Assembly: GCF_041146345.1 (NCBI RefSeq)
Contig: NW_027191402.1
Location: forward strand, 1,178,001 to 1,242,000
Length of the DNA stretch: 64,000 bases
Origin: Neodothiora populina
Taxonomy: Eukaryota
Direction of reading: 5' to 3'
Positions within the stretch are counted from its first letter, which is position 1; each line of letters starts with the position of its first letter. Positions 1 to 26,649 of the stretch are shown here, one piece after another. The translations under genes were made by a program, and so were the position numbers. A model generated the notes under the pieces. That model saw only the letters and a program-made list of their open reading frames with translations. It made no database searches and was not told the origin of the DNA.

Positions 1-1370
1 CGCGAGTCAGGCCGCCCGCACGGCTCGAAGTCCATGCGGGAAAGGTCGGCTTGTCGATGCGATGCACGTCAGTGCCGTGCTCGTTGACATTGGGGCAGTT
101 GCGATCCAATGGGCCGCAATCGTCCAAGCCCAATAAGCAGCGTGGAGTATAAAACGGCATATTCTGCTTGTCCGCCCGTGTTCCATGAGTGGGTTGTATC
201 ATACTCGACACGTGTCCGCTACCCCCTCGCGTCCGACTCGCCCGCGGCGCTGGCTGTCGACGCGGCTGACCTGAGCTGTCAGGCTCTTCGTGATCTGCAT
301 TCGGGCTGTCCTTTTCAAACTCCCTCCCAGACGTCGGGCGGCATCCGGACCTTGGAGCAGGCTCAGCAGCCTTCTTCTTAAAGACGATAAGTGACACTCG
401 CAGGAGCTTGTTGCGCAGCGGCAATGGGCAGTATACTGAGGGTGTAGCGTCCGGCACTGCAGGAGTCTCGTCGATGATCTCGGAATATGTGTACTCCCAC
501 GTCACTAGTCAGTCCCGCGCTCTCTCACGTCATGTATGCGACCGAGGTGGAGACTGAAGAACTTGCAGAGTGGATGCTAGTACCCAAGCCACCGCCGAGA
601 GATGCAGTCGATTCTCCGTGCTCGACTGGTCGTTATCAGACCATCCCGTTGTTGATCCCACATCAGCCTGTGGCACTGACAGCAAGTAGTAAACCGTCCG
701 TGGGTTCTCTGGCACTGGCAGAAAGATGAAAGCTTCCTCGGTGCTAACATATCCGAACTCGCGCCCTGCTGCCACCATGTACAAGCAGGCTTGCGTTCCC
801 GCGGCAGCCACAAGGCGCTGGCATTTCTTGCGAGGCGAGTCTTCATTGCTGTATTCCAGTATGTCAGTCAGATCCGTGTCCCGGAGACCTTCTTGAAAAG
901 GCCCCAAGATCAGCTTGTGGGGCGCCTTGTACTCGATGATAAACGCGGCCACCCGTTCTTCTATTTCCGAGCCCTTTGACATGTTGTACACGCAGAACTG
1001 ATCTGTTCGAGGGCGACTCGTCAGCGCGTGACCCGTCGGCGCATGACTCTTCGGTGCATGACTTGTCGGCTCACGCGCGACCAGGCCGGCATCCGGACTC
1101 TTTGGCTGATCAGCACCGCTAGACATTCTCTCCTTCTCCAACAGCCGACGAGATCGACGGCGGCCTCTGCTCGACAATTCCACCGCGCTCATGCTGCTGT
1201 TGAGAGCATTTTCCGGGGTGAGCGTGTTCGCGTGGTCCTTGGTCGCTTTTTTTGCAGTGCATCGGAGGAGTCGCCTATGGTTGACAGGTCACTGGACTGC
1301 ACTGAGAGGCCAGATTGGAGTTGCACGTGGCGTTCGTTCAAGAACTGCGGCAGTGTTATGTATGTGGCAA
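1..1370 (-). pseudogene. Spok-like protein relic (PD-(D/E)XK nuclease, Cys cluster, start of kinase domain); runs off the window start
   Basis: ORF 530..1192 has RTDQFCVY...IIEYKAPHKL...TQACLYMV..G.EFGYV. An N-terminal TLPQFLNERHVQL segment lies near 1310-1360. Past a premature TGA (530) and frameshifts, the minus strand at 40-160 reads FYTPRCLLGL...LDRNCPNVNEH...IDKPTF. Confidence 0.75.
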
Positions 1371-1879
1371 AACGAACTGAGAATGATCTGCAAATGATGC
1401 AATATTAGCCGTTGTATTCTTCCTAGCAGTATTTGACCGAATCATGCAACATGGCACATCACCATTACACGAAAGCGGAAACAGTCTTTTCCGAGAGTGA
1501 GTGAAGTGTCAGCATGTCTGGGCATTTATGGAAGTATGACAGGCTCAGTCACCAGGTCAAGGAACGCATCGAACATATCGCTACCACGAGTAGAGCTCTG
1601 ATATAGGCCAGCGGTTGAAGTCTTCAGGTGTCGGATATCGACTTCCTTCTATCATTGGAAAGCAACACCTCTTGAGAGCATACTACGGCTGGTGGACATA
1701 AAAAAGGACCCCCGAAAGTATCTGCTATGTACTAGTATAATTTATCATTAGCGTAGGTCTTCGCTAGCAGGGGACCGAAGCAAGATCTCAATCGCTTGGA
1801 TCGGCTGATCTACTTAGCAATCACTTTCGAGGGAATTGTAACAGGCTCCATGTACAGAGCTTATTGCGACCAGCTTTCA

Positions 1880-4122
1880 CTAATTTAACATCTCTTCATA
1901 TGCTCCCGCAGTATACACTAAGCGAATGACGTTGAGGCCAAAGCTGAAGTACACGACCTGTGGCCACGAAACCTGTTCTAATTCCTTCACAGCATCGACC
2001 CCTGTCTGAAGCTCTTCTATGCTCACATCCAATCCTTGAAGATGATCTCGATGATAATCTTCTTGGAGCCATGTAACTTGGACATACCCCTGACAAGTAG
2101 AGCTTGAAGCTGCTTCACTTTCAGTATTTGTGGTGAGATCGCTACCGATGCAATGCTCGGATGTCACGGCCAGAATAAGATGGAAATTTGAAGCATATAC
2201 GCTGATATCGCGAGCTCCCTGGAAAAGAAGTAAAGACACTGGAACACCTTTCCGGAGTCTGACTACCTCGCCAGGGAGGGGATATGCTTTGGCAGTATGT
2301 GAATCTTCTCTAGGGACTACACGTAGCAGCGGCTCATAGTTTGAAAACGTTATTGTACCTTCCGATCCAGGCTCATAGCGTCTCGACCTCCAATCGACAC
2401 CTTTGGAGAAAGTCTCGTCCGGCAGCTCAGTAGATCTTCTCTCCTGGTTGGTACTGAGCTGTTTCAAATCAAAATCATACGCTCTTTGAGACGTTGTAGA
2501 TCCAGATTTGTCTTCTGATGGGATAACATTGTCATCTATGATAAAGGGTGCAATTTCGGGGTCTACCACTGCAGGTTGCCTTGTGAGAGTGCACCGGGAT
2601 TCCAAATTGGATGGGACGAATTCAGCAGTCTCATGCTGTGAAGCATAGCCATGATGAACTCTGTAAGCCTGTGTCGATTGGACTATTGTGGTTGTTGACG
2701 CCGTTCCGGATGGGAGGATAATACTCTCCTCAGGCTGAGGAAAGGGACTTCGATCGAGTTTCAGCTCTCGTGTGATACGGCAGGAAATCTCTTCCTCGAA
2801 GTTCCGCACTGTCGCAATGAGATTAGGTGATCTGGAGCATGTTGATCCCAATAGATCTACTGGCAACGCCCACTTCTCATACAAACGTCCGTGAGAGCTA
2901 GGGATTAGGAAGCGTTCATGTACTCGAAAAAAGAGGTTGCAAAGGAAGCAAGCCTGTTTGTTCGAGGAGATAATTCTCGGAACAGTTTCGGAGGTCGTGA
3001 TTTCATAATGAAGCAGCAACTGGATTTCCGCATGGACAGGATAATTTAGAGTTGCTGCTTGTTTTATGAAATCTATAGAATCTTCCGTACTCGTCACGCG
3101 ACCGTCTTTTTGCAATCGACGTCCACGAGCCATGCTAAAAAGACACTTCGTAGCATTAAGAGTAACGTTGTCGATCTCCACGACTAGATGTTTGGCTGGC
3201 CGAAGTTTTATTGGAATGTTTTCGATGTTGTTGAACATCCTGAATCTACGTGAGTAATGTATCAGCAAGTTGGTTGCTCTCAAATATCGATTAATCTTCC
3301 TCAATGTCTTTATTGACCCGGACAGGGATGAAGTCAGTCCATGATCTTCAACGATTATGACCAAGCGGCTACACTTCTGCACTATCTCCATGAGCAGATC
3401 TAATCCAGGCGCCGATGTCACCACCTCTGGTTCAAGGTGTTCGAGACGCTTGAAAAGGGACGCCAGATGTTTTGTAGCTGAGCGCAGAGTTTCTGTTGTC
3501 GATGTGGAGATCCGTTGGCCTGCAACTGTGTGACAAGCCTCCAAATCTCTGCACAGTCCAGGGATCCACGATGGTCGAAGACTCCTCGCTTTCTTGAAAT
3601 TACAGCGCATCTTCGCGTTTCTTAACCTGCAAAGAATACGATTCCGATGTAGAGCGACAACCTCATGTAAGACGTCGCAGTTCTCTGAGTGAGACAAGCG
3701 TGGTCCCGTGAATCAGTAGAGTACTATGACCTTCAACAAGCTGATAATGATGACGAACGATGGGTACTTTGATCTTGCAAGATTCGTGCAATTCTCTCCA
3801 ATGCCTCCTTGACGACCGACAAGTCCCCTTTATTGACTGCTATTTTGATTTTTATGCGTTGCGCAGACTCGTATTCCTCAACGCAGGCTGCCGCTACTCT
3901 ACCTGGATCGTCACTATTTGCCGCCAAAAGCGCGAAAATCTCAGCCAATCGACGTTCTTGTTTGAGAGTTAATATTCTTTGCGAGCTGCCTCCTTGAATC
4001 ATCTCACTATGGTACCCATTCCAGTTTTCTGATGGAAGATTTGGTTTGTCGTTTATATAATGCGATAACACGGTTTTTTGGGCTAACCCCGACAAGTCTT
4101 CAATCTTTAACGCTCGATCCAT
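1880..4122 (-). CDS. OTT_1508-like nucleic acid deaminase (two exons, about 722 aa)
   Basis: HAEIQLL...PRIISSNKQACFLC...SHGRLYEKW motif. ORFs 3733..4122 and 1880..3697 join in frame through a phase-1 intron at 3685..3758 (GTTCGT...ACTGAT...CAG). Confidence 0.85.
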
Positions 4123-5879
4123 TGTTCGGGTTGATTGATAAAGATCCCCGCACGATTTAAGCCTTGGTGGCTATCTAAAGATTTCAAGGGCGTCAAGGTC
4201 GACGTCCTTTATACGGGAGGTTGAAATATGCATCTTATTTTTGCATAGTACTGTAAGTGTCGCATGTTGGTCGCATAGGATCTGCGACTTCCAGCAGCTA
4301 AAGACGCACATGGGGTGGCGATCGAGGCAACTAGATCCAAGACAGGCCAGGCCCTCCTTGTTGCTGGTAGTGGAAAGTGTGGGGTTTACTGGATGTCAGC
4401 AAGCATCTAGCCCGTCTTATGCGACGAGAGCACCTGTAGGCGATAGTTAGAGACAACAACAGATGCAAAAATACTTGGTAATGCATTGATAGATTGCAAC
4501 TACTTGTATACCTAGCAGCAAAAAGAGACTGAGAGCAAAGCCATGACAAGGTAGTTGGTAGACGGCTGATAGTCAGGGAGCGGTAGCTGATTGTACCTCC
4601 TATGATACACGACCAGAACATATTTTTGATCATGGCTATACCTGGCTAACTACTCCCTGCAAGTATCGCGGAGCAGCTCTCTACCCTGCTAGAGATATCG
4701 CATGAGTTTCACGCATTGTGAGTAGTTATGAAAGAGCGCCGAATCTCTGGTTGAGCCTAGTGCTAATTCTTCATCTGCTGATAACCGATAGTGTATGCAT
4801 GCACATGTGATCGTGGAAATGGGTCACGCCACTCGAGCATGAACAAGCAAAATGGTATAATGACTACATCGGGCAAATTGCATCTTGTTCTTACGCCTGC
4901 TTGCATGTAATCAGTATGATAAGCGGTAGTGCAGATCAAGATGTCATAATCTCATAGGCTCCGAGACCCTCTTCACCTAAGCGATGGACGAAGCTGGAGA
5001 GATATCTCCATTTATCACGCATCTAAAGTAGAGTGAATTGGAATACTGCAAAAGATTGGGTTCCCCATATCACCCCATCAATACATTAGCCTTGAAAAGA
5101 CGACTATTCTCGGCACAACGACAAGATTCCATGACCTGTCAGTGGATCATCTAACTTAGGCCAATGCGCTGAGCCGTTGAAGCTCAAATCTCTTCTCCAA
5201 GGGGGATCCCCGAGCACCATGAAGCCATAAGTTGAAGCTGGGCTTCTCTTCTCAATCATCTGGGTGCACGACTATCCGACTCAAGGATGGATGGGTTCAA
5301 CAAGTATCCTTCATCTTGACTGTCTCGAATGCATCAAGTACTTGATAAGCAGATTCGGCACACCACGCCACGCTGATCAACCGTCATTCCAGGTGAGAGA
5401 TGATCGTTGCACTTTTGCCCTGTGACAATTCCATCGTCAGAAGATCGCATAGCGTATCATTCTGAGTCAAATCGGCGCCCGAAGTCACAAGACTTGTGGG
5501 TGATAACGAGGGTTTGAATGACAATCCACAGGGGTGTGCAAGTATGTGGACAGGAATTGAACAGCCAAGTAACAAGGGATCGTGTCACAGTATGGTGGGG
5601 TAGAGTGTACATGTGAAGACTGCATTATCCGAGTCAGAGCAGGGCCCCAACCGCATCCAGGAAACTAGAGTATCTGTTCGACTTGCCGTGCTTGCGACCT
5701 CCTTGACAGGCCTGATTAAGATCCATCTCGCTCCATACGAAGGTTCAATGTGCGCACAAGGGTCGATTCACGGTATGTGACGGATCGCTGGTTCAATCAT
5801 CTGCTACAAGCTCGAATCGTCGGATATGTTCATACTCGCGTGAGAAGGGCGTATAGATAGTTCTTGCAGAGCGCGGCAC

Positions 5880-6355
5880 AGCTTCCAAACAGACTCCGTC
5901 ACGCCTTTGAACGACCCAAAATAACAGAAGTCCCATCCCCAAAGATTACTGGTTGCAGATGATCACCCGAGATTGGGTGCATCTCAATCGAATACTTTGC
6001 CAGTGGCCCTTTGTTGATGTCCTCGTTCACTTCGGGGTCGGTATTGATAACGATCCTATGATAATCGCTATGGAGCCGTGCAACGGATTTTCAACTGACC
6101 TGGCTCCTGAAAAACGAGATAATAGCTTTGGCCTATGTGCTGGCAGAGAAGTTCGTTATCGACGATTAATCCGGAAATGTGACCAACAAACCGTTTCGGC
6201 TCCCTTTGCAAGTCAATCGGTAGGCGTGCATTGTCGGAGAACTCCAGATGAAATTTGTGGGCTACTACTGCCTTCTCATCCTTGTTGAACGGAAAAGAAG
6301 GCACGAACTTGTTGATCTGACCAACTACTGTGGGATTTTTTGCAGTCAGTCTCAT
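5880..6355 (-). pseudogene. Degraded gene fragment of unknown family
   Basis: 95-aa ATG ORF (6068..6355) with protein-like composition that continues in another frame (HSDYHRIVINTDPEVNEDINKG...). No family recognised. Confidence 0.25.
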
Positions 6356-8156
6356 ATTTGCATCGCAGGAATTTTAATGTGCGACCAATCATGGATTTAC
6401 CCCTAGATGTCAACTTCCAGGTATCTACGAATCACTTAGTGTCTCGCAACAAGGCAGGGCAAAGCTAGCCTCAATGGAAGGAGTGTGATGAATCGAGAGA
6501 TGGCTTGCAGGCAATTTGACGTGATGTAGGCATGATCATCAGTGTTAGCGAGCTCGACAGCGGTTGAAGTCCACCCTATGCATGATAAGATTATCGTTGT
6601 CTTATTCAGGCACGGCGCGATGCAAGACTACGTATCGATAAAACAAACATCCTATAGCGGACTATCTGGCCGAAGCAGAAACTACTGTGGACACGTTCCA
6701 GCCGGATGTGACCAGTCAGAAACATTCTCGCCTCTAAATCACACTGTTCCTTGTATAATAGTGGTTTATATGCTCATGCGTTGAGATGAGACCTGGTATA
6801 TGATGTCTTCCATCCTTACTGTTAGCTAACCCTTGAACTTATGCTAAGCATCTCGACTACCGCAATGCCTTCATCATATCCTAGGAACCACTGGAATCAA
6901 TCCATCGAATCACCTCTATAATTTGTATGCACCCATGGTCAGGCTCACCCTGTGAGTTTAGACTGTTAAATTCTGATCGTCTCTTAGCACACTGTTGTTG
7001 CGGAATCTATGTCGTTTCCTGTCTGTTGAGTCGAATATACGACTGCTATACCGGATCCAGATATTCCAACATAAAGATACCGCAACTTCATCTCCGTGGA
7101 AACAAACCCTGACGAATCCGGGATCGTGCATCATGAGACTAGTGACACTACCGACGCTCAAGTTCCACCCCCATGACCAGAACAAATGTAATTCCTTGAT
7201 GATGAGAAGACGACAGATGAAGCCAGATGGGACATTCTACCGGCAGGGCAGACCAGACCGAAACTGGTCAGATGTACAAGATGGACAATAAACCGAGCGA
7301 TCCCTGCTTTTCAACGAAGTGGGGTCTTGAAGGATTGAAGAGTGTGCAAAGTTCAATGTACCAATGTAACTGAACCTTTTTGCATTGATTTGAGATCTGG
7401 CCATAGAACCTCAAGTATATTTCCTGGGGTGTGGTCCATAACAAGATAGACCTTTTCATCTGGCTGTTCCTATATTGCATAGAGCCTCGGTGCGGATATT
7501 TCGATGTTGTAGTCGATTTACAATAGGTTCTCTCCTTCGACAACGTCCTGATGAGGACTATACTGACGACATAGTGATCGCAAACGCGAATGATCTTTTC
7601 GTCAGCCCATTCCTTGATGTTCCGATAGGACCACCAGCGAACAAGCGAGCATGATTGCTAATTTCCCGACTGGAGCGATCAGTTTGGATACCGAGACGAA
7701 CGTTAGCGGTTAGGGTATTGTGCCGGTAAAAGTTCATTCGGAGAACTTGCTACCAATAGGGTCTTCGTGTACAATGTTGGGCGCTAATCAGTTTGGTCTT
7801 CCTAAAATAACTGCTGAGATTATTACTACACGCCCTCATTTATATTAAGGCAAGCCCCGCAGTAACACATCATTTGATCCTTCCAATTTCGAAGCTGGGT
7901 TGCGCGCTCGATTAGGCATTAACGCATATCTTGGAACCTCAATATCGGCTAAGCGATGCTTGTGGTTTTTCGCGGCTGATAACTAGGATCCAGTCGAGGG
8001 CTGGGGTATAAGTAGCTACAGGTAAGGTAGGGGGGTCGATGAAATATACTTGGAAGTGTATCACATATCGCGACTAGATCTGAGTGGAAACTTATGACAC
8101 CCTGCTACTAAGAATTGTGAAGTGAAGCGATAACGATTTGCTTAACGTGAAATAGG

Positions 8157-9119
8157 TTTTTTAAGCCCGTGGAAATTTTGGGACACGGTTCATTTTAAGA
8201 TGGTGGCCTAACTCACAACAATCCTGTTAACCTAGCAGTCTGGGAAGCAAGGCGTGTGTGGCCTTCCTCGTGTGCGCCGGACATAGTTGTTTCCCTTGGA
8301 ACAGGGACAACCCAATATCAACCAGGCTTAAATTCTCATCCATACCGGTCATCTAGAAATGGCTTTTTGACAAGGCTCTGTCGGTCATTTTGGTCCTCAT
8401 TAGACGGACAGCACAAATGGACGGAATTGCAGAACAATCTGGACGAAGCGAATGGGAATCAATATCACAGACTTAACGTCTCTCTAGACGCAGATATCAG
8501 CATCGACGACGTCCGGGCTGTCGAGCTACTAAAGAACAAAGTGCGCAAACAGGCAGATCTGGAACTTAAATGTCAAGGCATTATAATCTCGCTCTTATCG
8601 TCGTCGTTCTATCTTGAGCTGGACATGGAGCCGCAATTCGACGATGGCTTCTACCATTGCACCGGGACTATACGCTGTCGTAACAATCCCAATGATCTTC
8701 TACAAGTTCTTCTTCAGATGCCATACACGAACATGAGATTCACCTCTGATACAGGCTATTTGACCGACGTTGGCGGCGTGGAAGACATATGTTCCTAATG
8801 CCACCTCTACGTGAAGCGTGTGAAATTCTACGTACGACACCCAAAAGAGGTGATGACAATATACTTGGAAGCCGATAGTGATGTTAAGAAACGTATCAGT
8901 GGTTTCCCACACAGTATGGAATGGTTTGTAAGGGAGCAAAAACTGGATTCTATGTTTGGCACTCGGGAACATGATCATGCGGTGCGCCAAAAATGCGGGT
9001 TGTGTGAAGGACGTGGGAGTCGTAAGCGGAGATTCAACCGGAACAACACACGCGATCAAAAGAGGCTCCGGGGCGCCGGTTCGGTGATGCTGGACAGAAC
9101 GCAAATATCAATGTTATAA
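8157..9119 (+). pseudogene. Patatin-like phospholipase (PLP), C-terminal exon only
   Basis: After an acceptor ending at 8156 it reads FFKPVEILGHGSF*DGGLTHNNPVNLAVWEARRVWP...DIVVSLGTG (patatin DGG motif). In-frame TAA at 8196 and 8796. The N-terminal GxGxxG/GxSxG part was not found. Confidence 0.85.
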
Positions 9120-9142
9120 ATAGCACATTCCCTGCCAGCTTT

Positions 9143-10327
9143 CATGCTATGAAGCATCTACTGCATAATTCAGTTTCTTCTTCTTTGAACGTATCGCTCC
9201 TAAGTATGCAACCTATCGTCGAAATTAGTCGGAGCAGGACAAAGTTCCCCGGTGGACCTCTGTTGTTACGAAAACGCCCTGATCCACCGGCTTTAGAGAC
9301 GAACACTGCGATATCGCAGAAACGTCGTTTCCTCTAAAGCACGGCACTACCTTCACGCCTTCCCCTTAAAGTAAATCCTGATAGCAGTCTCTTCATGAGT
9401 TATGTCCGGAAGAAGAGTGGCGAAACCAACAACCTCAATAATGATGTTGAGTCGTCCAAAATCTCTTGGTCATCCTTTCGAAAGCTCATGCAGGAGGATC
9501 AGGCTGGTATGGCGCTCATTGCTCACCAGAATCAAGCAGACTTCCGTATAGTGGCCATCAAAACCAGAGGAGTGGGCAGTGAACAGTACAATGAAAATTC
9601 AAGACTCACGTCCTATAAGAATCTTGTCAATCTACAATCATTCTTTGAGCATGAAGGAAGCATGAACTTTGTCTACGAATCATGTTCGGTCTCCCTAGCT
9701 GATATACAAGCAAGTCCTTACGGGCTCCTTCAGGAATATGAAATAGCAGCAGTATGCAAAGAGGTATGTGATGACGGCTTGGCATCGACCTTAACTAACC
9801 TAGAGAGCTTCTTGAGGGACTCGGTTACATCTCGGAACTTCTTAGAGTCGGACATACACTTCGATGCGAAACTATCCTCGTGACTGAGGATGGTTACCCC
9901 AAGATTGGTACGTTGGTACTCTGATTTCGTTCCACTAGTATCAAGCTCAACATAACAGCGAATATTGGTGATATAATGTTGGATAGCCACAATCTTGAAT
10001 GCTTGGAGAGTAGCAGATTGCTTGGATATCTCCTCAAATATCTGCTTGAGCCCGTTAGTGTATTAGACGCAAACCACAAGCTCGAATTATCTTCACACAA
10101 TGTGTGGTCCAGTGATGCCGAGGATTTCCTCCTTCAGACCTAGATCAAGGGCGTGGAAGATTTGAAAGAGGTGCTCTCAACTAGCAACACGAGATAGAGA
10201 AGAAACGGATCACTCTCAGCATAATTTTTTACAGAGATCACCAGGACCGCATTGTCTGGTTCCCCATATTTTGATAGCCCAACGCACAATGCGGAAGACG
10301 TGGACCCTTCTGCCAGATCTGGACTAA
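9143..10327 (+). pseudogene. Degenerate protein kinase-like gene (three putative introns)
   Basis: VAIK...NLVNLQSFF...FVYE...SLADI...EIAAVCKE|LEGLGYI...KI|ANIG kinase-like succession. GTATGT/GTACGT donors with CTAAC-type branch sites. In-frame stops at 9334 and 10141. Confidence 0.75.
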
Positions 10328-10504
10328 TAGGTCTGCTGACTTAAACAGGCGCTATATAGCCGATCCCATACTGGGTCTATTGCACTGAAAGGGGCTCATG
10401 GAGACTTACTATGGACATATCGGTATCATATGGTAAACACATGCCACAATCTTCTACATTTATGTGTAGTCATTCGTCCATAGGAGCCTTATCCCTCCGC
10501 ATCT

Positions 10505-11053
10505 ATGAATTTCAATACTTCTATGACTATGGCTACATCAGTTGTTCGTTTTGCTCAGTCTGTTGTGACGTGTGTCTCCCGATCGCCAAATTGTGCAGAA
10601 GAACGAGCTATCTCAAGATTTGAGCACTATGCTTGGGTGTGTGGAAGCTGCTCCCTACCACCTGCTTTAGATCAAGGTAGCATTAGCCTCTGCCTAAGGG
10701 GTCTATCTTTCGCCGACCAGATATTGAGTCAATTGCGGTACAGCCGCGGCCACGCTATAAGCGTAGTGAATCGCCGGTGCTGGCATATTCGTGTAGAGAT
10801 ACCGACGCATTGTGAGGCAACCTGGGAGCTTCCGTATGCGGACAGGTACCTCCAGCGATTATCTCGCTTGTCTTCGACGACTCGATCAATTTCTCAGAGG
10901 ACGACTTCTAGTGCATCAAGCATCGTCAGTGCTTATTCTTCATTCTACGAAGTATGCCCAGATGTGGTGGACAGAATCGCCCGAGTACGGCGAAGGCTAG
11001 AGGATGGAGAGATATACAGCATAGTGCGTAGACTCACACGATACATTTGGTGA
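10505..11053 (+). CDS. Uncharacterised fungal protein with H/C pattern (FEHYAWVCGSC...LCLRG...VEIP..C)
   Basis: 182-aa ATG ORF, convergent with the DUF3435 gene. The motif spacing resembles a fungal hypothetical family. Confidence 0.55.
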   Translation: MNFNTSMTMATSVVRFAQSVVTCVSRSPNCAEERAISRFEHYAWVCGSCSLPPALDQGSISLCLRGLSFADQILSQLRYSRGHAISVVNRRCWHIRVEIPTHCEATWELPYADRYLQRLSRLSSTTRSISQRTTSSASSIVSAYSSFYEVCPDVVDRIARVRRRLEDGEIYSIVRRLTRYIW

Positions 11054-11204
11054 GATCTGCTGCATTTGTGAGCTTCGAGGGACATCCTTCTTTAGCATTT
11101 CATCGACATCGGCTTATATGAGTTGAATGGTCTTGTGACGGAAGCTCATATTTTTACAAAGAAAGATCTCATATTCGAGGAGATAAGAGGAATATAGAAC
11201 AGTA

Positions 11205-13645
11205 CTAGAACCGGCTATCAAGTCCATGAGGGGTTGCGCGAAGACGCGGACCATGGCAAGAGACCATGTGATGCTTCAATCGTTCCTCGCCATTAAATAC
11301 GAACCCGCACTCAACGAATGGGCAAACATCTGAAGCTTTTAAGTGGGTGAGATGTTCCTTTTGCACGTGAGTCTGAAGTACATCCAGTCTGCAAAACATG
11401 AATGCTCGTGCGTGCTCAGTCAAACGTTTATCTGAGAAGCACCACGGACACTGTAACCCGTGACAGACATTAAGATCGTCTGCAGCTGCTTCAACGCTAG
11501 AGTCGTTCGGCGAGGTTTGATAGTGACGTATTTCTCGTCGCGTACAAAGACTGATCATAGCCCCAAGAGCGAGAAGTCGATCAGCGCGAACAACATTTTC
11601 CGACAGAGTGTTAACATCCTCGTTTCGAAATAATGTCTTCGCTAACTGTCTGCGTTCCGGAAATACTAGCGACGGGATTTCTGGTAAATGTTGTGGTTTC
11701 AATCCCTTTCGTTGTCTATCAATCTCGTTGCAGCCAATATTATCGAACCACTCTTTCCGTTGAGATCCTCGATGATCGCGAGCTATCTTCTTTCTTCGCG
11801 CTAGTATAGCGCGTTGTGTCTTCACATAGACTTTGTGTTCATCAGTCGTCTTCGCCTTTTTCAGACTACTGTACTTTGAGTGTATAACAAGCCGTAGTTC
11901 TTTCAGCGCTAATTCGAGCTTTTCGAGAGTCGCATCTGGGAGGTCCGGAGTGCTTGACATACATGATATTGCAGCATGTGCACGCGGATCTCTCGTCAGA
12001 CTCATGTGGCTCGCGAGTCGTACAATAGCGTCACGAGAGGGTGTACCAAGATAAGCGGAGGATAGATCAACTGTTATTGTTTGGTTGACATAGTATTTGT
12101 CAAATATCTCTGATCGCGAGTGCCCCATGGCACGGTTGCGCTCAGCTGCTGTGGCAAATTCTAAGATGTCACTCAGTATTGTCTCTAGAATTGCGAAGAT
12201 ATTACTTACTGTCAATCGCCTCCCCTGCTCCACGACGTAGGCTGTACAAGTTGAAATTTTCTTTAAAGCCTGCCGAATGTCCAAGGCGCACAGTGTGCAT
12301 GCTTGCAACTTCGTAAGGCAAGCCAGTATGTGGAGAGCATGCAGGTCCGTATGAGGTCCTGCAACTGTTGCGCAACAGCGGAATATCTCGCATCTCGTCT
12401 TTCCATTCCAGCGGAACACTCATAAGATACTCCGGAACTTGAATTTGATTAAGATCAGCGGGCGTCCGTAGCTAGTCACTTTTGAACGCCTGATCTGCGA
12501 AAGCAAGTGCAAGAACGTGCAGAATTGGACAAAAAGCAAGGTTGTCGTCCCTCTCGTAGAGTATATAACATGGTGCCGACCCTGCATGCCGAGTGCCCTT
12601 GTGTAATCGGAGCTTGATGATCATGACAATCATGGTCGACGATGGTCGAGCTGGATCTCGCACCTTGAAAATGCGAATATCTTTGTATTTCAAGGAGTCT
12701 CTCTTAGCATCAGCGTCTTTACTGGACACTTGGAAAGTGTCTGCTTTTTCGCCAAGCTCTTCAAATGGCCGTCTGTATGCTTCTATGATCGTAGATGGGC
12801 GTGCAGACGTATATGCACATAGGAGCATAAGTAGGGATTGCTGGAGGCGGTGTCGCTCAGTAGGATAGACGTCTACACATCGAACCCAATGATGATAGAG
12901 CAAGTAGAGAAGATCGTCGACGTTGACGACTGGTTATCTTTCTGATCCTCAGAAAGTTCAAATTCAGTACGGAGATCAGTCTGTATAAACTGCTCGAATT
13001 TAGTATTCGTTCTGTGCCATTATACTTCTACTTTCTTACGTTTGTCATCTCGGACGCAAGAGGTAGAGGCAAAGGACGGAGTGTTTTCAATCTGTACGCC
13101 TGACGCCAGAACCGCATGGACACAAACAATGTTGAGACTCGTTGTATGTTCGATGTATCAACAAACCAGTATATCCATCTCTTTATTCTTTCTTTATTTA
13201 GATTGTGAAGTTCTGCTTGGGGGTCAGGAACGCCCATCGCTTCGCAATACCTGGTAACGATTTAGCTTAACCCGTCTAATGGAGCAGATTATGTATACTT
13301 CTCCCAGCGTTTCCACATTCTAGCCACACTAAGCAAAGTCGCTGGTCGGAGGCGTATACGAGAGTCTGGATCATCATCGTGAAAGAGGCCGAGGTAGAAC
13401 TCTGGACCTCGTGACAAGTCTTTTTGCGGCTTCCTCGCCATTTCTTCGTAAGAGGTTTCGGGACTGCATTTGATTGAGGAGAACGAGGGCACGTTTTGGT
13501 TATAAGCCTGTTCGGTAGCATTGCTGCGGCATGAAATGCTGCCATGGAGGCATATGTGCATATCGTTGAGGAGAGAGGAGGACTTGTTTGACATCTCTAA
13601 CGCCCATCTCAGCCTATCAGAGATTTCTTGGCGCGAAGCGACCAT
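11205..13645 (-). pseudogene. DUF3435 tyrosine recombinase (Starship captain-like) with C-terminal C2H2 zinc fingers, disrupted
   Basis: Introns at 13251..13298, 12990..13039 and 12161..12209. Motifs YTSARPSTI, LRLHKG, FCPILHVLALAFADQAF, YSLRRG, RNRAMGHSRSEIFDKYY, LTRDPRA, CPWC..H and CPFVEC..H. One-base frameshift near 12933 and an in-frame TAG at 12472. Confidence 0.92.
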
Positions 13646-14505
13646 ATGGTCTGTTCAAACCTCAAATGAGGACAACACCATAAACCTCGACAAGACCTGC
13701 ATTATTAGGAGTCGCCTTCATCAAGACACTGCTTGATATCGTACTGCAGGATTTGCCAAAATTACTCGCCACTTGTGTGGTGCTATACACTGATTTAGAC
13801 AATTCGTTATCGGAGGGGCTGCATGATGCAGTGCGGTATAGAGTGAATATGGGCTGCTAGATTTTTCCAATTACCCTGCACTCTGATAAGAGAATCGTTC
13901 TTAATTTCTTTTTCCAAGGGATTGCAGTGATTTGTGGTAGCTCTAAGTACTGTGTCCTGCCGAGCGAGCGGGATGACCAATGAGTAGATCAATCTCATTG
14001 GTCCACTACAAGAGGCGCACTGCCACAGTAGAGAAGCATTTACCGTCCTGTAAACATGAAATTCCAAACAATACTTCAACGCACACAGCTTGCGCCATAT
14101 GCTCACGACTCCAGAGGTTGGAAATTGAGCATAGGCATTAGTTTCCTCATCAGCTAGGTTTGTATCTGATCGAGTGCTTCAAGAAAGCAGTACAGTAGGT
14201 AAACCATCTGTTCAAAAGTATCGGTAGTTTTCCTGGTATATCTGCGGAGACAACTTTTGAGGGGACCAATCAAAGGGGCCAGCGTTCGCTAGCTTCCACC
14301 GACAGTGTGGTTCACTTGAACATCAAAGGGCCGGGCCACTATAACAAATTAATCTTGCGCTCTTACTCAACGTATGATAAACCTCGCTGTCTGCAGAAAC
14401 TCTTGACGTCGTGCCATCACCCCTCACAATCGGTCGGCTCTACCCAGCTACCTACTACACAGTAACCGTTCAGAAATTACGATAAATCCCCTTGGCAGAG
14501 ATATC

Positions 14506-15642
14506 ATGGTGAGAAGCCCGGCATCCGTTTCGCAAGATGGTTTTCGAGGACGCCAAATGCACTTTGTGATAAACGGCCACCATTCTGAAGGTCATGCGTC
14601 TACTTCAAAGCTGATCAGATCGACTGCTGCACGAAATGAATGGAAAGATCCGAGACAGAGGAAGTTATCTGGATCGCAACCAAGCGTTCCACAAATCGTG
14701 ACGAGTCACAGCAGTATATCGTCTCAGCATAAGGGTAAAGCCACCCGTACCTACACTTTTCATGGTACTGGCTAATGCTGACAACGTTCATTAGCAACGT
14801 CTCTCAGAAGTAAACAAGCAAAATCAATACACATTGATGTCCCGTCTTCGTATATATCTAGCGCTGGGCAGCAACGAAGCAAACAAAACAAAGATCGCAG
14901 ATTGAACTTCCTCGAGACAGTACTCCTCGAAGAGTATCCTCTCTGGGCCGCAATGGGAAATGCTAGCGATCCGTTCAATAGGTATCCAGCACCATGGAAC
15001 CCCGCTTTTGGGACACTTTTGGAGTTCTGTGAGTATACATCTGTACATGATCTAGAATTTACATGTCCCACGTCAATCGATACTAATCTGGACTTTGTAG
15101 GGGTTACATACATCAGCCCTGGCTGCCCGAAAGAGATCAGTCATGGATGGGATAGTACGATGACGTCAGCATTTGCCAATGTGCCCCTCGTAGCAAGTGT
15201 CAACAGCAGTGAGCCCGCAGCTTTCTACTCGATCCTGGCGCTATCTGCAGTCATGTTACCTGACACACACCCTCTCGCACCCAGTCGATTGCCACGGCTA
15301 TCTCAAACCCTCCAGACCAAGGCACTGGCGACCTTAAACACCGCCCTGACCAAAGCTCAACAAGCCACTGGCAACTCCACCATTGTTGCCCTTGTCGCTC
15401 TTGCATGCTTGGCCATGTACTTTGGACAGCATGCTGCCGTCAGATCCATATATCTCCCACGGTTGAAGCGCATAGTCGAGGCGCGTGGAGGACTTGGTCA
15501 GATTGCGCGCGAAAGTGGTCTGATGCTGCCTCGCTGGTGCGCGTGGGGCGACTGCGTCTTGACTTCGCAAGCAGGTCGCTCGCCTCTGTTTCTCGACTTT
15601 GAAAATGCCAGCAAAGACTCAACTGGTTTGGACCATCACTGA
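14506..15642 (+). CDS. Fungal-specific transcription-factor-like protein (no Zn2Cys6 cluster seen), possibly 3'-truncated
   Basis: Exon 14506..14734, then intron 14735..14794 (GTAAAG..GCTGAC..TAG), joins the 14902 ORF in frame. Motifs LIRSTAAR, GNASDPFNRYP and L..IVEARGGL. Confidence 0.6.
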
Positions 15643-18600
15643 GGTCCACGAAACACACTCTGATGAGGTTTTATCTGGAACAGCCGTCGGGAGGAGGCTC
15701 AGCGCAATTTCAACACTTTGACCTTATCAATAGATGTCCATATTGCGAAGGCGAACTACAATCTATACGAACATCACTTCAGGTAGAATGAGCCTACATC
15801 AATCACCCGCAGCACTTACCAGCTGCACGACTACAAGCTGCCACTTCTAGGACTTCGGAAGGTACCCAAGATGGAGCCCAAGGCGATACGCGGGCATTGT
15901 TCGAGTCGAGACCAGATTGTTGCCTTGAGATGATTCATGACTAAAAGATGATTGACAGCTTGCAATCTAGCGTGTAATCCAGTAATCTATAAAGTCTTTG
16001 ACCTTCGATTCGTTCCACCATATGAACGCGTAGGTCTGCCCTTTCTACCACCCACTGATTCCCTTCCCCATGATCATGATCGTGCTCTGGTCATCCGACT
16101 GTGAGATCTGTCCTACCCATAGATGAGGATCTAGGCGGGACCAGGGGTAAGCTGATGCACTCCCAGTGCACCGTGTCCGGATGTGCAAACAGCCCCGTCA
16201 AATGTTCGAGGCAGGCTGATCAGGCTTCTTGACATATCACTCAGCCTGCTCTTGTTAGTCTATCAAATACCCACGCACTGGGTTGCTACGCACAACCGTC
16301 TCCCTTATCAAGATCCGCCAAAGCATCATCGAACCAACAAAAATATGGTCTCCCTCTGTACATGTTGAAGCCGAAGACAAGAGATAAAAGAAATGACTCC
16401 AGGACTTTTTGGAACTGGGTGAACGGTACTTCATTCATGAGACGCAGTCTGTATGCTTCGCTACCTCAGCGCTTGCGCTGCACGCACTTAGTCAGGTGCT
16501 CCCGGATCGAGATCACCATTACATATAAGTTCTCTGGACTAGATAACTAGACCCCCGCTAATACCCGTTGTCTGTTCAGTGGTCATATATTCCATGATTT
16601 CTGCGGTCCAGGTCTCGGTATCATATAGATGCATCTGCTCGGCTACGATACACAATATATGAGCTGTTGAGTATCTAGATTTAAATTGAGCTTGAGATGA
16701 TCACTTAGACTCTGCCATGCAAATCCAATTGAGTTTTGAGTTATAAAAATACCAAGCTCGGGAATGCAAGCATGGTTCGAGTCTATTGTGGGGGCAGCAC
16801 AGAACGAGTGCTTGATCTAGACTTCTCTAGACATGGCACGACTGAATACTCGAAGGATCACAAGATGTTTACTGATGGAACCAATACAAAGACAACTTTA
16901 GTCATCCATACTGAAGCTTTGACCATAGTCACATCGTCCGGTTGCTAGGTGATGGGCACATACAAGTTGTCCCCATTATCTTCGGAACTGCTTGAAATGC
17001 TTGCTCGCAATGAGAGTACTGCCTCGAAACTCAAAAGAGTATCTGAATTCGTTTCATTCGCACGTGTAACAGCACACGAAGTCAAGCCTCGTAAACAGGA
17101 TGTCGGATGTTGGACCCATAGCTCTTCTGTCCCTACTACTTATCTCAATTCTCATCGGGCCTCGTGACTGACTTCCATCCTTGGGAATGTGGCCCGTAGC
17201 ACTTGGGAGTAAGATTCGCCAACAGCGCTTCCACATCCGTAGCGGTGCTGATGCTTGCTTGAAACGCTGTGCAAGCTCGCTCATACTGATGTGGATGTCT
17301 TTATCAGCCGAGCGAAGACATCAGGTGCCACCTATCGTCCCGAGGGCTACCAATACTAGATCCCATACATCACTTCCTACTGGTTGGCTGCACTTTGTGG
17401 AAGAAACACCGAATTTGCTGCATGTCTGGAAACCGATGTGAAATATGTCAACTAGAAACGAGAGCCAGGTATTCGAGATATTGGTTCAGGGGCATGAGCA
17501 AGCTCACGTTGTGGCTTCACATACAATTTGCATAGTAGCGTAGGTAATAACAGCCCGAATCAGACAGCTGCATGGATTTGATCTCCTAGAACAATAGCAT
17601 TAGTATCGCACATCTCAACAATGACTGGCTTAAATGACGGGAATGGGAATATACAGCGTGGCCCCCCCATAGCGACTATTTCGAATACTCAACTCTGTGG
17701 AGAATCTTGGAAGGAGTAGTACTGCAGCCTATCCCAACGAGCGCTAACGGCAACTCTCATCACGCGTAATTGTTGGAAGTAGGCACTTAAGGTGCACACA
17801 TGGGGTCGGCTTTTAAAGAGCAATATCGAGTTATATCCTTACAAGTCTGTATCTCATGCGGAGTACAGTCGCCTTCCAAAACAAAGCGATCTCTCGTAAG
17901 GTGCTATTGCCTGTTACATAACTTGAGGTAAGGTATCTACTATCCAGCACGAGAGATTCATCTGGCCTCGGCATAATTTGTCATCTCTTGTTTGCACAAG
18001 AAGATGATGACGAGCTGTTAATAACGCCACTGATAATTACACTACCTACGTCTCAACTCAGCCATCTTATCAGCAATTCCGTCACAGAACGCCACCATTA
18101 TAGGACACTACTGCGAAATGATCAATATATGTCAGACAGTGGAATGTTGAAGTGTTCAGCCTGGAACAAATCATTTTATAACAAGTCATTCCAGAAATGA
18201 GAGGACTATGTGCTTAGACTATCAATGAAATCAGTTCAGATGCACTCACCGTCTAGTGAGGTAGCAGAACTGTCTTTCCTTCCTTCCTGAATTAATATGT
18301 GCAGGGCAATGTAGCAGCAAGTGCTTATCAATTGCCATGAAATACGTCCCAAACCTACTTTTTAGACCGGAGATTGAGCCAGACCCCTATGTGGACTGCA
18401 CTGCCTCGACCCTTTCGTTAGGCTGTTCTGCGGGACACGTCATGTTAATCCCCAGAATTCGGGATGCTTCGCTTGCTGTCGTGCAACCGGAGATATTGTA
18501 AAGGAATGCTGACCTTGCTGCAAGACTTCGACGCTATTTGCTGCTGTTCATATCAACAAAGATTGGGCAGGCTTAGCCCAAATTCGATTTGCCAGAGTAG

Positions 18601-19006
18601 ATGTTCATTCTACCAATTGGAAGACCTTAAGCATGCCAAGTTTACAACCAGGCGTCCATACATAGATAGCTATGTTGCTAAAGAAGATTACTTTGTACCC
18701 ATATTACCGCGATACATATGCACGTGCGCTGAAGCGAGCCACTGTACAACACATATGGCAGGAAACAGCATTATTACGCGTCTCATCATGAGGCTACGGT
18801 ATCACGTCATGGGATGATTTGCGTGCGCAGACCTGATCTCGCTCGACCGTTAAGTTCCTGGGTTTCCCCTATGATCGAACACGACGCAGGCAAGAAAGCG
18901 GTGTATCCAAATCTCAAGCCTCGTCAAGTTCTACTTCTAGGTGCAAAGACGCAGTCAGGGCCAGAGGTGTGTTGCTGTCTGATAGTGACAGACCAAAGAT
19001 AAACCA

Positions 19007-20838
19007 TTGTCTGAAGAACCGAATTCACCAGCATCTACGCCCTTGGCATCTCCACTGCCTGGGAAGAAGCGATCCGTACCATCAGACGTCAAAATTTCAG
19101 CAGAAGGATCAAGGCACCTGGAGATTCTCGATACAAAGCCCACACCGCCTCCAATGGCCAGCAAGGTCCAGCGCGCGCACACGCAACCCGATCATAATCC
19201 CGATACTCCGATGTCAGAGGCTTTTCCAGACACATCGGTGCAAGGGCTTGTTTCAGAAGACTTGGTCATACCGGACTCACCATCGGTCACCAGCAAACAA
19301 TTGGAGGGTGAGATAGCGATGATCTACAAAGACCTACTTGCTGTGGAGGCCATGTGCATCAGCTTCTATAAAGCGGAGCTTACGAGTGATAGCAGTAGTG
19401 GTATGCCTCAAGATCGCGAGAAATGGCAAAAATCGATGGCCCTACACCGAAGTCTGTTATACCAATACCATGATTTTCTCTATGTATCGCAATATCCTGC
19501 AGCGACCGAAGATCTTAGGGGATTGGCTCTGAGATATGCTTTGCCAGCTCGTATGTGGCATCGCGGGATACTTCCGTTTCTAGAGGTGCTGTATCGACGC
19601 CTTCCAGATTCGACGGACTACTTGCTTCAATTCAATTGCATGGCATATCAGATGATTGCTCTGCTGTACGAAACATCCTTGGCCTTCAAATTAACATAGA
19701 TGGAGTGCTTGGGGAACCTGGCACAGTTCAGAATGACTATAAAGGATGGTGTTCAAGACGATAGCGATATCTGGGCAGAGGTGGCTCGGTCATGGTACTA
19801 CTCAGCAGCGTCCGACATGAGACCGGACACAGGTCGATTGTATCACCACCTCGGCAATCTAGCCAGATCAAACGCGGTAGAAAAACTTTCACTCTTTTGC
19901 AGATCTCTAGTCTGCGTCACGCCATTCCAGAAAGCCCGCAATTCTCTCTGGGAGCTTTTAGAATCTACTCCCGACGTTGGGCAATCTGGATGCTCTTTGC
20001 GCAGTGTCCATGGACTAGACGCATCATTCCTTCGTATTCATGCTGCAATGGTTGCAAAGCTTGCTGGGAAATCCAACAGCCTGGGTTTGTCAGCGAATGA
20101 AGAGGAGAGCCAGAGAACATACGTTTCTGGGCTTGCCGAACAAATTGACAACCTTGGAGAGGAGTGGAAGAAGCATGGTGTGTTCCTCGCCACTGCTATG
20201 ATAGCAGCATGTCTTGACTATAGCTATGAAGGGACTGGAAACCCCCTTTTGGTCGCTTTAGCATGTCCGCCAGGTACTTCGAGTAGTGCAAATGCCACTC
20301 GGAGAACAGACGACAACTGGTGTGGGTCATTGCGAGCTACGCGCCTACTTCTCTCGGTCTTTACCGTAGTTCTTGGTCGTAAGCCGACTTCACGGTTCTA
20401 CTTCATGTCCACGTAGTCCTTGTCTTCATCCGCAGCGTCGCATCGCTGTCCAACAGTTCGACACCATGTCTGCGCACATTCCTTGATCTTGTTCCATGGA
20501 CTGAGATTGAAGCGTTTCTCAATAGCTTTGCTCAGCCCAAACCATTACTGAAGCATCACCTGGATATTACTCATCTCAAAACGATGGAGCGTAGCTCCTG
20601 TCCACTATTTGAAGATCACTCGCTGAGAGGAGCTGCCTGGGCTGGCAATCATCCTGCTGAGGAATGGTTTGGCAACCCATCAGACGATACTCCAGGAGCA
20701 TTTGAGACGGCGAGTATCAACCACACAAGACTACAGAGGGTCCTGTATTTGTTTGACTCAATATCCGAGGCTAGTGGTCTTATTATTGTTCTTCACCCCA
20801 ACGACATCCCGCGACATAGTGAGAAGGGTGCATATTGA
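19007..20838 (+). pseudogene. Est1/Ebs1/SMG6-like TPR-type DNA/RNA-binding protein
   Basis: LHRSLLYQYHDFL...PARMW..GI..FLE...T*MECLGNLAQFRM...ARSWY...GRLYHHLG...PLFEDHSLRG..W. TAG at 19697 where W is expected, and a frameshift near 20384. Confidence 0.85.
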
Positions 20839-23865: not shown

Positions 23866-25755
23866 GATGGTAAAGAGTGCTTGGGATGGTCACGGCAACA
23901 AGATCGCTATATTGCAAAAGAGGCAGATGACATATGGCAGTGAAGGGGGGGTCACGGCAACGATGACAGAAAGGAAGAAGGGTATAAGCAAGACGGCTCG
24001 CGCCCTCGCGGTTTGGAAATAATGTGAAAACATATGGCACCGTCCTCCGACTAGCGGAAAAACTTTGGGGAGAAAGACAGACGTATTAGTTGATGAGCCG
24101 ATGTGAACGTGAGGGCGGAGTAAGCAGATCACAACAAGCATGCTATGAGACGAGCAATGAAGGGGCTCCCTCGTTAGACGCCACTGCAAAAGGCCAACGC
24201 TTACCAAAGGAAAACGTGCCTACGCATGTTCAGCAATATCAGCATGTCGATAGTACCAAAGTTTCGATAGTCAATGCGACGTAGGTTCCCACTGTGACTT
24301 CAAGCTCTTGGAGGATGTACGAGCTACAAAGCCCTACTATCCCAAGAAGCTCTTCCTGAGTAATTTGCTTAGTCTGATTATATGTCATGTCTTTTTTTAT
24401 TCGCACGTCAAGAGGTACCCACATCGAAGATGTATATCGTCGCAACAACATTGCTATTGGAAGAATATTCCGTAACGCGGCGTGAAGTTCATCTTCTACA
24501 AATATACCGTTTTGCTCAAGGAAAATGTGCAGACATACAGCCGCTGGCGTGCATTTGATAGCATCTGCCATAATTAGACTTCGCAGGCCCACAAGATCAT
24601 AAGTCGTAAAACACAGGGTCAGGTCCGCAGTTCTTTTTACCGTTCAGCCTTCCATGCTGTTGACGCAACGTTCATCTGTATCTTCCGACTCCCGAGTCAC
24701 TAGTAATATACTATATAACTACAGGAGTCGAGAACTCGACAATGCTGATTATCGTAATTCTCCGGACTTGTGATTTCGCGGACTCGCGATTTTCACAGAC
24801 TTGTGGGTTGGAGTTGAGAGGCCTTACGAAGCGCTATAGTATGTAGTACCTGACGTTTCGATAGTATAGAGTACAACTTCCTCCTTCCCTTACCGACCGC
24901 AAGAATATTATCACCCTTAGTCTTATACACAGCGACTGTAGCATCAGTTTCTATTATAACAAACATTTTCAGATGAACTTAGCTTACAGTATTCGCAATA
25001 AAAGAAACCCGCAGAGTATAGTACTACTTCACTAACAGTTTTATGTAGACCCCAGCTTCGAGCCCTGAATTCGACGTGATCTTGGAACCACAGAATGAAC
25101 GAGGTTGACTTTTCAGTTTTTCGATTCTACGATACTAGATTTTCGTTTTGGCAGATACGTAAAGTAGGTAATTATGGCCGACCGTCATTAGTAGGTTACA
25201 TGGCTATAGTTTCACGAATCATAAGGCTCACTAAAGACAAACGTTACATCGTTGCGAATAGAAGCTTAAGCCAAGGTCCATGATAGTGCCAATAATGATT
25301 GCCACAGGGTACATTCGTTGATAGTAGTGATTAGATACGAAGTATGGCAGACAGCTGTGGTAGCGAAGAGATGCCTTCTCCGTAGGTACGAAAAGAATCC
25401 ATGCCGTTCTGCATCAGCAGAGGTACAGTACTTCGCCTGCATACAGCGAGCGGGTGCAGAGCGCCCACTTCCGAGGGTTCAAGGCTGCTTCCGGGACTGT
25501 CACGTGGCAGCGATCCGACATCTTTCCGTTCGCCAAGGCCCAGGGCTCAGGGTCCATCGATTCACACTGTTCACCTACAAAGATACTGTTCACCTACTGT
25601 ACACTGATACTAATACAAGGTCTGAACCTTTGTCTACAGTTATACGGCCCGTTCTCAATCTGCTTTGGTGTGATCGTAACTCACAAGCGTAATTTATGCA
25701 TTGCATCAATTACTTACTGATTACGAATCTTATATAACGTGCCTGGACTTCGACA

Positions 25756-26649
25756 GTGAGTTCACAACTGGTGCTTCCATATTATAGAGAAGAGCGCGAC
25801 TTACCTGCGCCTCTACCGTCTGTCGATGATATTCGAGCTTCTACATACTACCTCAAAGGCGCCGAGGAATGGGCTGATGAAAAATTTGTTCGCGTCGGTG
25901 ATCACTTTGTCGTCAAGTATAGTCATTATCAGAACGTTGTCGAAGGCGAGAATCTATTGTACATCGAGCAAAATCTCCAGATATCTGCACCGAGGCTGTA
26001 TGCAATGTGGAAAGAGCCAGACGGAAAATTCTATCTTGTTATGAACTACATCCCTGGAAATACACTCGAGGAATTATGGCCGACCCTCCGGCCAGATGGA
26101 AAAGCCTCCATCGTGTCAAAGGTGAAAGAAGCGTTAGACCAGATGCGTGCCCTTCCTTCTCCTGGTTTTTTCGGAAGTACCGCGAGAAATTACTTGCCCA
26201 CTCCTCTTTTCTACTGGCCGGAACGCCCGCGCAGTGTATGCGGGCCGTTTCGAGATGAGCGCGATCTCGTGATGGGATTAGCATCAAAGTCTCGGCTTAT
26301 AGCCGAAATGAATCATAAGCACTCGTTCCTAGCGGACTCTTACGACGGCTCGCTGATCCACGATCTTGTCAAGACTGACCGGGCGTCAGTCTTCACTCAT
26401 GCGGACCTCCAAATGAAAAACATCCAGGTAGAAGAGATTAATCCTGGAAACCCTTCCAATAAGGAGTACCTGGTCTCAATTTTAGATTGGGAGAACGCTG
26501 GATGGTACCCGTGCTATTGGGAATATTTCTCTGTCTTCATAGCATTCCGATGGGATAGCGACTGGCTCGATCAAGCGACTAAAGCCGTCGTTGCATGGCC
26601 TGCAGAGGCAGCAATGCTCAGACTGATATATCAGGATCTGTGGGTCTAA
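25756..26649 (+). CDS. Aminoglycoside phosphotransferase (APH)/choline kinase-like protein
   Basis: FVVKY...EGENL...APRLY...YIPGNTL, THADLQMKNI, ILDWENAGWYPCYWEY. The ORF opens on GTG with an in-frame stop at 25735 and no upstream ATG. Confidence 0.85.
   Translation: MSSQLVLPYYREERDLPAPLPSVDDIRASTYYLKGAEEWADEKFVRVGDHFVVKYSHYQNVVEGENLLYIEQNLQISAPRLYAMWKEPDGKFYLVMNYIPGNTLEELWPTLRPDGKASIVSKVKEALDQMRALPSPGFFGSTARNYLPTPLFYWPERPRSVCGPFRDERDLVMGLASKSRLIAEMNHKHSFLADSYDGSLIHDLVKTDRASVFTHADLQMKNIQVEEINPGNPSNKEYLVSILDWENAGWYPCYWEYFSVFIAFRWDSDWLDQATKAVVAWPAEAAMLRLIYQDLWV

Follow-up and report, generated by a model that had tools for sequence, protein, structure and literature searches.

The available part of PMC10104507 describes captains as tyrosine recombinases that are required for excision. 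HhpA of Hephaestus, as described there, belongs to the same superfamily as the gene studied here, with Tyr replacing His in the pentad and a Cre-like predicted fold. It is, however, a member of another family with a TTAC core target, and it is intact and experimentally active, unlike our captain. The same source reports that a frameshift in HhpA lowers transposition, and that a wild-type copy can complement in trans. Tardis Starships (clade 1, family 3), as presented in the parts of PMC11162782 and PMC12153272 available to us, the latter describing the A. fumigatus element Tardis h1, share with our locus a DUF3435 captain carrying the clade-1 YxxR motif, a Tardis-like core lying a few hundred bases before the captain, and kinase- and patatin-type neighbours; our captain also nests among Tardis-labelled proteins. 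In contrast to those elements, the captain here is broken and the paired direct repeat was not found. The host is a member of the Dothideales, whereas the Tardis elements among the Table S9 rows listed carry Eurotiomycete or Orbilia codes.

The available parts of PMC11162782, PMC9156397 and PMC10104507 report that broken captains and degraded Starships occur commonly, and the gene reported here is therefore ordinary in itself. Wallaby with its pseudogene captain, Derelict, and degraded Voyager and Defiant (PMC11162782 and PMC9156397, in part) are likewise immobile remnants in accessory regions, with decayed cargo and a pseudogenised captain. Our captain differs in having only two lesions, in still being spliced and in being less decayed than the cargo. 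Derelicts, in which according to the same excerpts the captain is gone but the cargo remains, represent the opposite case. Captain transcription is described as usual in A. fumigatus in a partly available source. Our literature search found no paper joining Neodothiora and Starship, and none on transcribed broken captains.

Neodothiora populina is a fungus of the Dothideales and a tree pathogen. The stretch that we analysed, hereafter the window, is the final 64 kb of a 1,242,800-bp contig that terminates in telomere-like repeats, from a host assembly of 24 Mb in 18 contigs. We consider it likely, with a probability of about 80 %, that the window holds a pseudogenised captain belonging to the remnant of a Tardis-family Starship, within a subtelomeric accessory region of this Dothideales fungus. 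Genes of housekeeping type (tRNA intron endonuclease, PAXNEB and VPS11) are found from ~40 kb left of the window (61 ORFs scanned), and a UstYa/tyrosinase cluster, a GH3 gene, an aminotransferase, a transcription factor and an MFS gene sit between them and the window. The segment L006:758-7870, 20–30 kb left of the window, holds a tyrosinase and three genes of the UstYa family, which is the composition of a fungal RiPP biosynthetic cluster. The features of the locus are collected in Table 1.

Table 1. Captain gene, lesions, putative element end and neighbouring features, in window coordinates
Feature	Position	Strand	Basis or remark
OTT_1508-like deaminase, inside putative remnant	1880..4170	-	Pfam E 3.9e-18 (1883-3712); extension to 4170 inferred
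Broken APH-family kinase paralogue, stops and frame change	6450..7624	-	81 % to 25738-26911
Patatin-like phospholipase, C-terminal third, 2-3 stops; Starship auxiliary gene	8124..9077	+	
Broken protein-kinase-like fragment, cargo type, weak identification	9338..10140	+	Pkinase E 0.11; stop in translation
Span of X2 spliced contigs, depth 7-9	11136..13641	-	Strand inferred from intron ends
Exon 4: His 12122, Tyr 12092, helical region, C-terminal zinc-finger-like region	11205..12160	-	
Intron 3, 49 nt	12161..12209	-	L030 alignment, X2 contigs
Exon 3, with both lesions	12210..12989	-	Arg 12801, Lys 12600, YxxR 12246 and 12237
Lesion 2, in-frame stop between catalytic Lys and YxxR	12472..12474	-	L030 alignment, contigs
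Lesion 1, frameshift, one base shorter than L030	12933..12934	-	L030 alignment, contigs
Intron 2, 50 nt	12990..13039	-	L030 alignment, X2 contigs
Exon 2	13040..13250	-	Homologues, L030, X2 contigs
Intron 1, 48 nt	13251..13298	-	L030 alignment, X2 contigs
Exon 1 from likely start codon	13299..13441	-	Homologue alignment; frame stays open upstream to ATG 13645
Shared 5'-terminal segment	13654..13745	-	Relics G000:C4:770173-770264 and G000:C18:36177-36246
25-nt subterminal motif, identical in 3 copies	13676..13700	-	Genome-wide pattern search
6-6-6 palindrome inside boundary, candidate recombinase-binding site (function inferred)	13720..13737	-	
Candidate direct-repeat/target core at 5' boundary	13738..13745	-	Three-way homology begins; Tardis-like
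Flanking transcription-factor-domain gene, outside element, divergent, spliced	14394..16000	+	Paralogue on C14

An earlier note, made from the letters alone, had proposed a captain-type recombinase, and Pfam, a tree and a fold comparison all bear this out. Two minus-strand matches to DUF3435 (PF11917), at 12205–12933 (E 2.2e-50) and 11208–12161 (E 8.7e-34), together span positions 1–415 of the 418-position profile. The ARP, HKG, YSLRRG and MGH...YY motifs that the note had listed as kept were all found in the translation. As read from the sequence, the catalytic pentad R-K-(H/Y)xxR-Y is complete, including the His and the Tyr; the catalytic R, K, Y and R are invariant across 15 aligned rows, and the H and Y nearly so across 44. 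A profile-free search returned 777 relatives at E 0.001 or better. The nearest named homologue, Delphinella strobiligena BDV97DRAFT_295949 (delstr1_295949; P0001 below), has 75 % identity and is fam03 in the part of PMC11162782 Table S4 available to us, family 3 being Tardis in that paper; five further homologues are labelled fam03 there, and two at a greater distance are given as fam01 and n.d. The starfish survey reported in the same source gives four recombinases and no mapped elements for the Delphinella genome.

A quick maximum-likelihood tree of 46 rows grouped the window gene with P0001 and the metagenome contig L030 (support 100), and a 12-row set around it holds five of the six Tardis-labelled rows (SH-aLRT 100); this tree has no bootstrap, its careful search was unfinished, and labels cover 8 of the 46 rows, of which only two are non-Tardis. 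By the tree, the window gene would belong to the Tardis-family captains, and its YxxR motif takes the form given for clade 1/3 in the available text of PMC11162782. The fold comparison was made with the close relative P0001 and not with the broken gene itself: its AlphaFold model has a pLDDT of 89.5, and the top Foldseek matches are XerH, an integron integrase and Cre (E 8e-5 to 1e-3). Family and protein searches of the genome found DUF3435 at this locus only, a count to be read as a lower bound since genome searches scored only the best candidates. Elsewhere in the window, a zinc-finger-like region at 50027–50389 (-) is similar to C-terminal parts of other captains (E 3e-6 with P0012). It has no DUF3435 beside it and may be what is left of an earlier, second captain. 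Near it, 49728–49804 matches two places on C18 at 70 %.

The gene structure could be compared with L030, the sole relative among 74 pattern matches, and with contigs of two sequencing runs, X1 and X2. These were the only runs found to contain the captain stretch; they come from a single sample, which may be the window's own source and does not represent independent isolates. Run X2 is listed as 'DNA?', and we read it as RNA because all three captain introns, and two in the neighbouring gene, are spliced out of its contigs; several bins have no X2 cover. The three introns claimed in the earlier note thus hold, and they occupy the same positions in L030, which has 84 % identity to the window over exon 3, against 75 % for P0001. 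Intron 1 is spliced although its +5 base is non-consensus. The start at 13645 given in that note is less likely, as homologue N-termini align from the ATG at ~13441. This ATG is probably the start codon, judging by the alignment, and the continuation of the open frame to 13645 is probably fortuitous; 12 more ATGs lie between 13745 and 13441. The intact protein from 13441 would be ~696 aa.

Two lesions interrupt this frame, as the note had claimed, and both match in the X1 DNA contig and the X2 spliced contig. The X1 contig (9001–13424, depth 35.6) shows no other letters and no gaps against the assembly, nor does the spliced X2 contig across 11136–13233 (depth 7); a second X2 contig reaches 13641. 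The window and L030 are 69 % identical over 1,679 columns, in an alignment spanning 13366 to ~11700, L030 ending inside exon 1 and lacking its first 5' part. Within this span the one-base gap at 12934/12933 is the sole exon length difference and 12474–12472 the sole stop. The frame of L030 is open through both lesion sites and P0001 likewise reads through them, unlike the window gene, and protein alignment over the remainder of the gene revealed no additional frame break. The captain gene is still transcribed and spliced. The present mRNA codes for 156 aa from 13441, the stop parts the catalytic Arg and Lys from YxxR, His and Tyr, and no open frame carries every catalytic residue.

The description of the captain as recently disabled was borne out by the contig-confirmed lesions and by the absence of surplus amino-acid change relative to L030 and P0001. 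Over 616 three-way columns the window has 49 unique changes, against 52 in L030 and 58 in P0001, and the radical changes among them number 11, 16 and 20, respectively. We take inactivation to be recent because the window changes are not in excess of those in the two relatives, and drift since then is, by rough inference, small, no more than a few per cent. The word recent carries no sharp date, since the window lies slightly above the relatives in conserved columns: 2 of 85 columns invariant in six other rows are changed (relatives, 0 of 83), and 5 of 137 in a looser set (relatives, 2 of 134 each). Synonymous sites against L030 are saturated (pS 0.75, dN 0.20), and so cannot date the lesions.

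The note's claim of a 5' end shortly right of 13645 is supported indirectly, at ~13745, by two relics in the same genome. The left ends of these stubs coincide, whereas their right ends differ (13676 and 13310) and their flanks are unrelated. The stub at C4:770173-770382 keeps, past a 228-bp gap, the exon-1 part 13310–13425 at 83 %. Pairwise identity in register is 6–10 of 10 inside, 4–7 of 10 over the ten bases before 13737, and 0–6 (mostly 2–4) beyond; past ~13745 the three-way homology is at chance level. The stubs differ from the window at 14/92, 9/76 and 10/70 positions, and this divergence makes them much older than the lesions. Relic matches also appear in the contigs, as loose ends (13676 and 13737) and a joint. 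From this sequence comparison we infer that the shared terminus is the element end, in which case the captain would be the first gene at the 5' end, ~300 bp from the terminus to its likely start with none between; the corresponding distance from core to start is ~690–770 bp in two Aspergillus elements, as given in the available part of the Tardis literature. Both stubs (L041, C4:770173-770395, and L047, C18:36177-36246) lie 100–300 bp past the stop of a host gene oriented the same way, and the C18 stub occurs in the spliced run X2. The C4 stub closes with a few bases similar to the exon 1/exon 2 junction, perhaps by coincidence, perhaps as the trace of a microhomology deletion.

The 6-6-6 palindrome pattern has three exact matches genome-wide, one at each terminus, and two more with one mismatch where the flanking homology is absent; across the three copies 11 of 12 arm positions are identical, against 3 of 6 in the spacer. 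The 25-mer also has three matches genome-wide when up to 3 mismatches are allowed, each with 0 mismatches (control, 0). A candidate direct repeat like TACGGAGTA matches at 5, 6 and 7 of 8 positions at the three 5' junctions (background tails 0.025, 0.0036 and 0.00027), with its 3' partner copy not found; the product of the three tails overstates the case because the register was picked post hoc and the copies may share ancestry. The Tardis target motif was taken from the accessible portions of PMC12153272 (Table 1 and text, plus Table S7 rows), and the window core is only 5–7 of 8 like this Aspergillus motif. Unlike in A. fumigatus, the Aspergillus Tardis 10-mer is not enriched in this genome, with 31 matches against 50 for a control.

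The DNA right of 13745 is also accessory-like, with an APH kinase, an EST1 fragment, a PD-(D/E)XK nuclease, a kinase and a captain-like zinc-finger relic, and GC shows no step at 13.7 kb. Since the right-hand DNA is accessory too, the element probably landed in an accessory subtelomere older than itself. The flanking gene's paralogue on C14 was tried as a junction marker and rejected, as its homology stops at 14264, short of the junction. Further right, the EST1-domain gene at 18989–20838 (+) is split by stops and has a 68 % paralogue at C8:317773-319518. An ABC-B-type transporter adjoins an ArgJ-family gene at 52932–58492 (-); the latter is 100 % identical to a Neodothiora populina record, its best non-host matches are patchy (Aureobasidium, Sclerotiniaceae, Penicillium), some being named ArgJ 2, and it is possibly a second, cluster-linked copy. 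A retroelement fragment bearing RNase H lies at 59088–60497 (-). Two long ORFs near the telomere (61367–63261, +) had no Pfam matches and might be akin to telomere-linked helicase/recombinase genes. Tandem repeats were seen at 44623–44841 (three near-perfect 72-bp copies), at 35812–35855 (11-bp unit) and at the start of C18 (L044-L046, C18:1-20483), where a 99.95–100 % identical repeat of 8.5-kb period may reflect amplification or an assembly artefact.

The cargo that the note had extending past the left window edge was not supported as part of a whole element: no 3' direct repeat or terminal inverted repeat rose above chance, the patatin, APH and kinase neighbours are broken, and a junction between subtelomeric repeat and solo LTR lies 5.5 kb left of the window start. 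The 161 kb left of the gene yielded a best combined direct-repeat and TIR score of 18, against 16–17 in four control stretches. This candidate lies 12.9 kb left of the window start (TIR 12/14, direct repeat 6/8), and an 8/8 direct-repeat match lies at 21.1 kb. Pattern and blast scans for a 3' end gave chance-level matches only, no repeat within the window could be tied to the captain as a terminus, and no 3'-end relics were common to the two stubs and the left flank. A 2.8-kb solo-captain element defined by an 8-nt inverted match at 10915–10922 was rejected as chance, this being one of six such matches left of the terminus and lacking an adjoining direct repeat. A boundary in a split 5S rDNA was also discarded, there being no Rfam 5S match in the window; a search of 215 kb with 10 of the 47 genomic 5S copies as queries gave only chance matches of 10–15 nt.

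The auxiliary-gene scan found one broken patatin fragment, 2 kb downstream of the captain; the remainder of that gene was not found in 215 kb, and the ORFs scanned (29, 61 and 91) contained no DUF3723, FRE or NLR. The APH copy was the only paralogue elsewhere in the genome of window positions 1–11300. The APH sequences at 6450–7624 and 25738–26911 form an inverted pair, the left copy broken and the right an open frame. An internal copy of a 1.5-kb chromosome-end repeat occupies the interval from 7.2 to 5.7 kb left of the window start; a 198-bp solo LTR cuts it off, and the repeat does not continue on the far side. The LTR has no target-site duplication, which is weak evidence as only one of five copies examined has one. 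We infer that the LTR site is a rearrangement junction bounding the remnant at ~19 kb. The AT-rich 1.5-kb repeat occurs at many chromosome ends; the copies considered here are at L004:2820-4542 (C4:1170820-1172542), at window 63268–64000 and in L019. Its internal copy is 70 kb from the telomere and opens with (ATTG)n, like a LINE 3' tail in reverse; this copy may mark an older chromosome end.

Several other explanations of these observations were weighed. The lesions could be assembly errors, or be bypassed in vivo by readthrough, frameshifting or RNA editing of the stop, leaving an active captain. The catalytic residues are intact even in the disabled gene, and the captain is fully spliced at a depth near that of its neighbour (7–9 against 9.9), but contig depth is a poor measure. 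An active captain would be expected to have an intact reading frame, whereas frameshift and stop are both present in DNA and RNA contigs. Assembly errors do not explain the lesions, because both contigs equal the assembly there, although such contigs lose rare variants and represent a single RNA condition. Bypass would also have to work at two independent lesions, and by-eye inspection of the frameshift site revealed no slippery heptamer. Stop-correcting RNA editing is, to our knowledge, known only from other ascomycete classes, which further counts against bypass, and we regard an active captain as extremely improbable. That repeat-induced point mutation (RIP) killed the gene is scarcely more credible. 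The stop codon includes TpA, the dinucleotide product of RIP, the chromosome-end repeat of the contig has a RIP-like index of +0.5, and the differences between the C4 relic and the window are mostly transitions. The captain's own 4-kb bins, on the other hand, have composite indices of -0.49 and -0.54, as in host DNA, with no bulk RIP signal, and the captain exon is single-copy in the genome; RIP also, as far as we know, never yields one-base deletions, which counts against it here.

As to the element, it might still be a complete Starship whose 3' end, ~12.9 or 21 kb left of the window start, was missed through degenerate repeats, with the LINE-like repeat and solo LTR as later insertions into cargo. 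The two repeat candidates noted above and the usual Starship size of 15 kb or more fit such an element, but the scores lie within 1–2 of the controls, the 12.9-kb candidate would split an inferred group of transcription factor, MFS and aminotransferase genes, and the chromosome-end repeat ends at the LTR without resuming. We judge this unlikely, though it is the strongest of the alternatives. Less probable again is an orphan or internal DUF3435 gene within a larger, older accessory block, the shared upstream sequence being a conserved promoter or 5'-UTR. The accessory character of the right flank and the absence of a GC step at 13.7 kb would suit an orphan gene, as would the starfish survey, which in its available part mapped few elements relative to Starship recombinases (559 vs 10,212). 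A promoter or 5'-UTR does not readily account for three loci with unrelated flanks that share one left end of homology and differ at the right, nor for the Tardis-like core at that common end.

We therefore return to a Tardis-family remnant with a pseudogenised captain, for which the following history is proposed. The intact ~696-aa protein would have been a Cre/Xer-type tyrosine recombinase that binds the element ends, as its family and fold suggest; its tyrosine would cut at a short core common to element and target, and the recombinase would then excise and re-integrate the element, a mechanism shown experimentally for HhpA only. The lineage would have made three or more insertions in this genome. 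Two of them would have decayed to 70–210-bp stubs of the 5' end, and the third kept its captain and a 5' end at ~13745, its 3' end being lost or obscured, probably at the solo-LTR junction. In the inferred order of events the cargo decayed first, and the frameshift and stop in the captain came last. The promoter and splice sites still function. The frameshift would be expected to reduce transposition because that of HhpA does so. The genome searches yielded no second captain, so that the remnant is probably stranded and immobile in this isolate, and with DUF3435 at this locus only, trans-complementation within the genome is unlikely.

A more speculative extension, which we think improbable, takes the three ends as Tardis-type cis anatomy in Dothideomycetes, the stubs as possible captain products or miniature elements, and the captain as possibly retained for another job. 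The proposed order of such an end is a variable target core, a lox-like 6-6-6 palindrome with conserved arms and a variable spacer, and an invariant 25-mer. The stubs may then stem not from passive decay but from captain reactions that were one-ended or imprecise, or they may be miniature non-autonomous elements mobilised in trans. Purifying selection may have continued to act on the captain once the 3' end of its own element was gone, the gene being kept until very recently for a job other than moving itself.

These results add a Tardis-family record in Dothideales, and the captain gives a view of a gene that has only just died and is still transcribed and spliced. The boundary was obtained from paralogous stubs of one genome, which provides candidate binding sites for a captain. 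These candidate end sites are the testable part. The main value of the relic would lie in what it suggests about the look of a Tardis-type end and its conserved end motifs.
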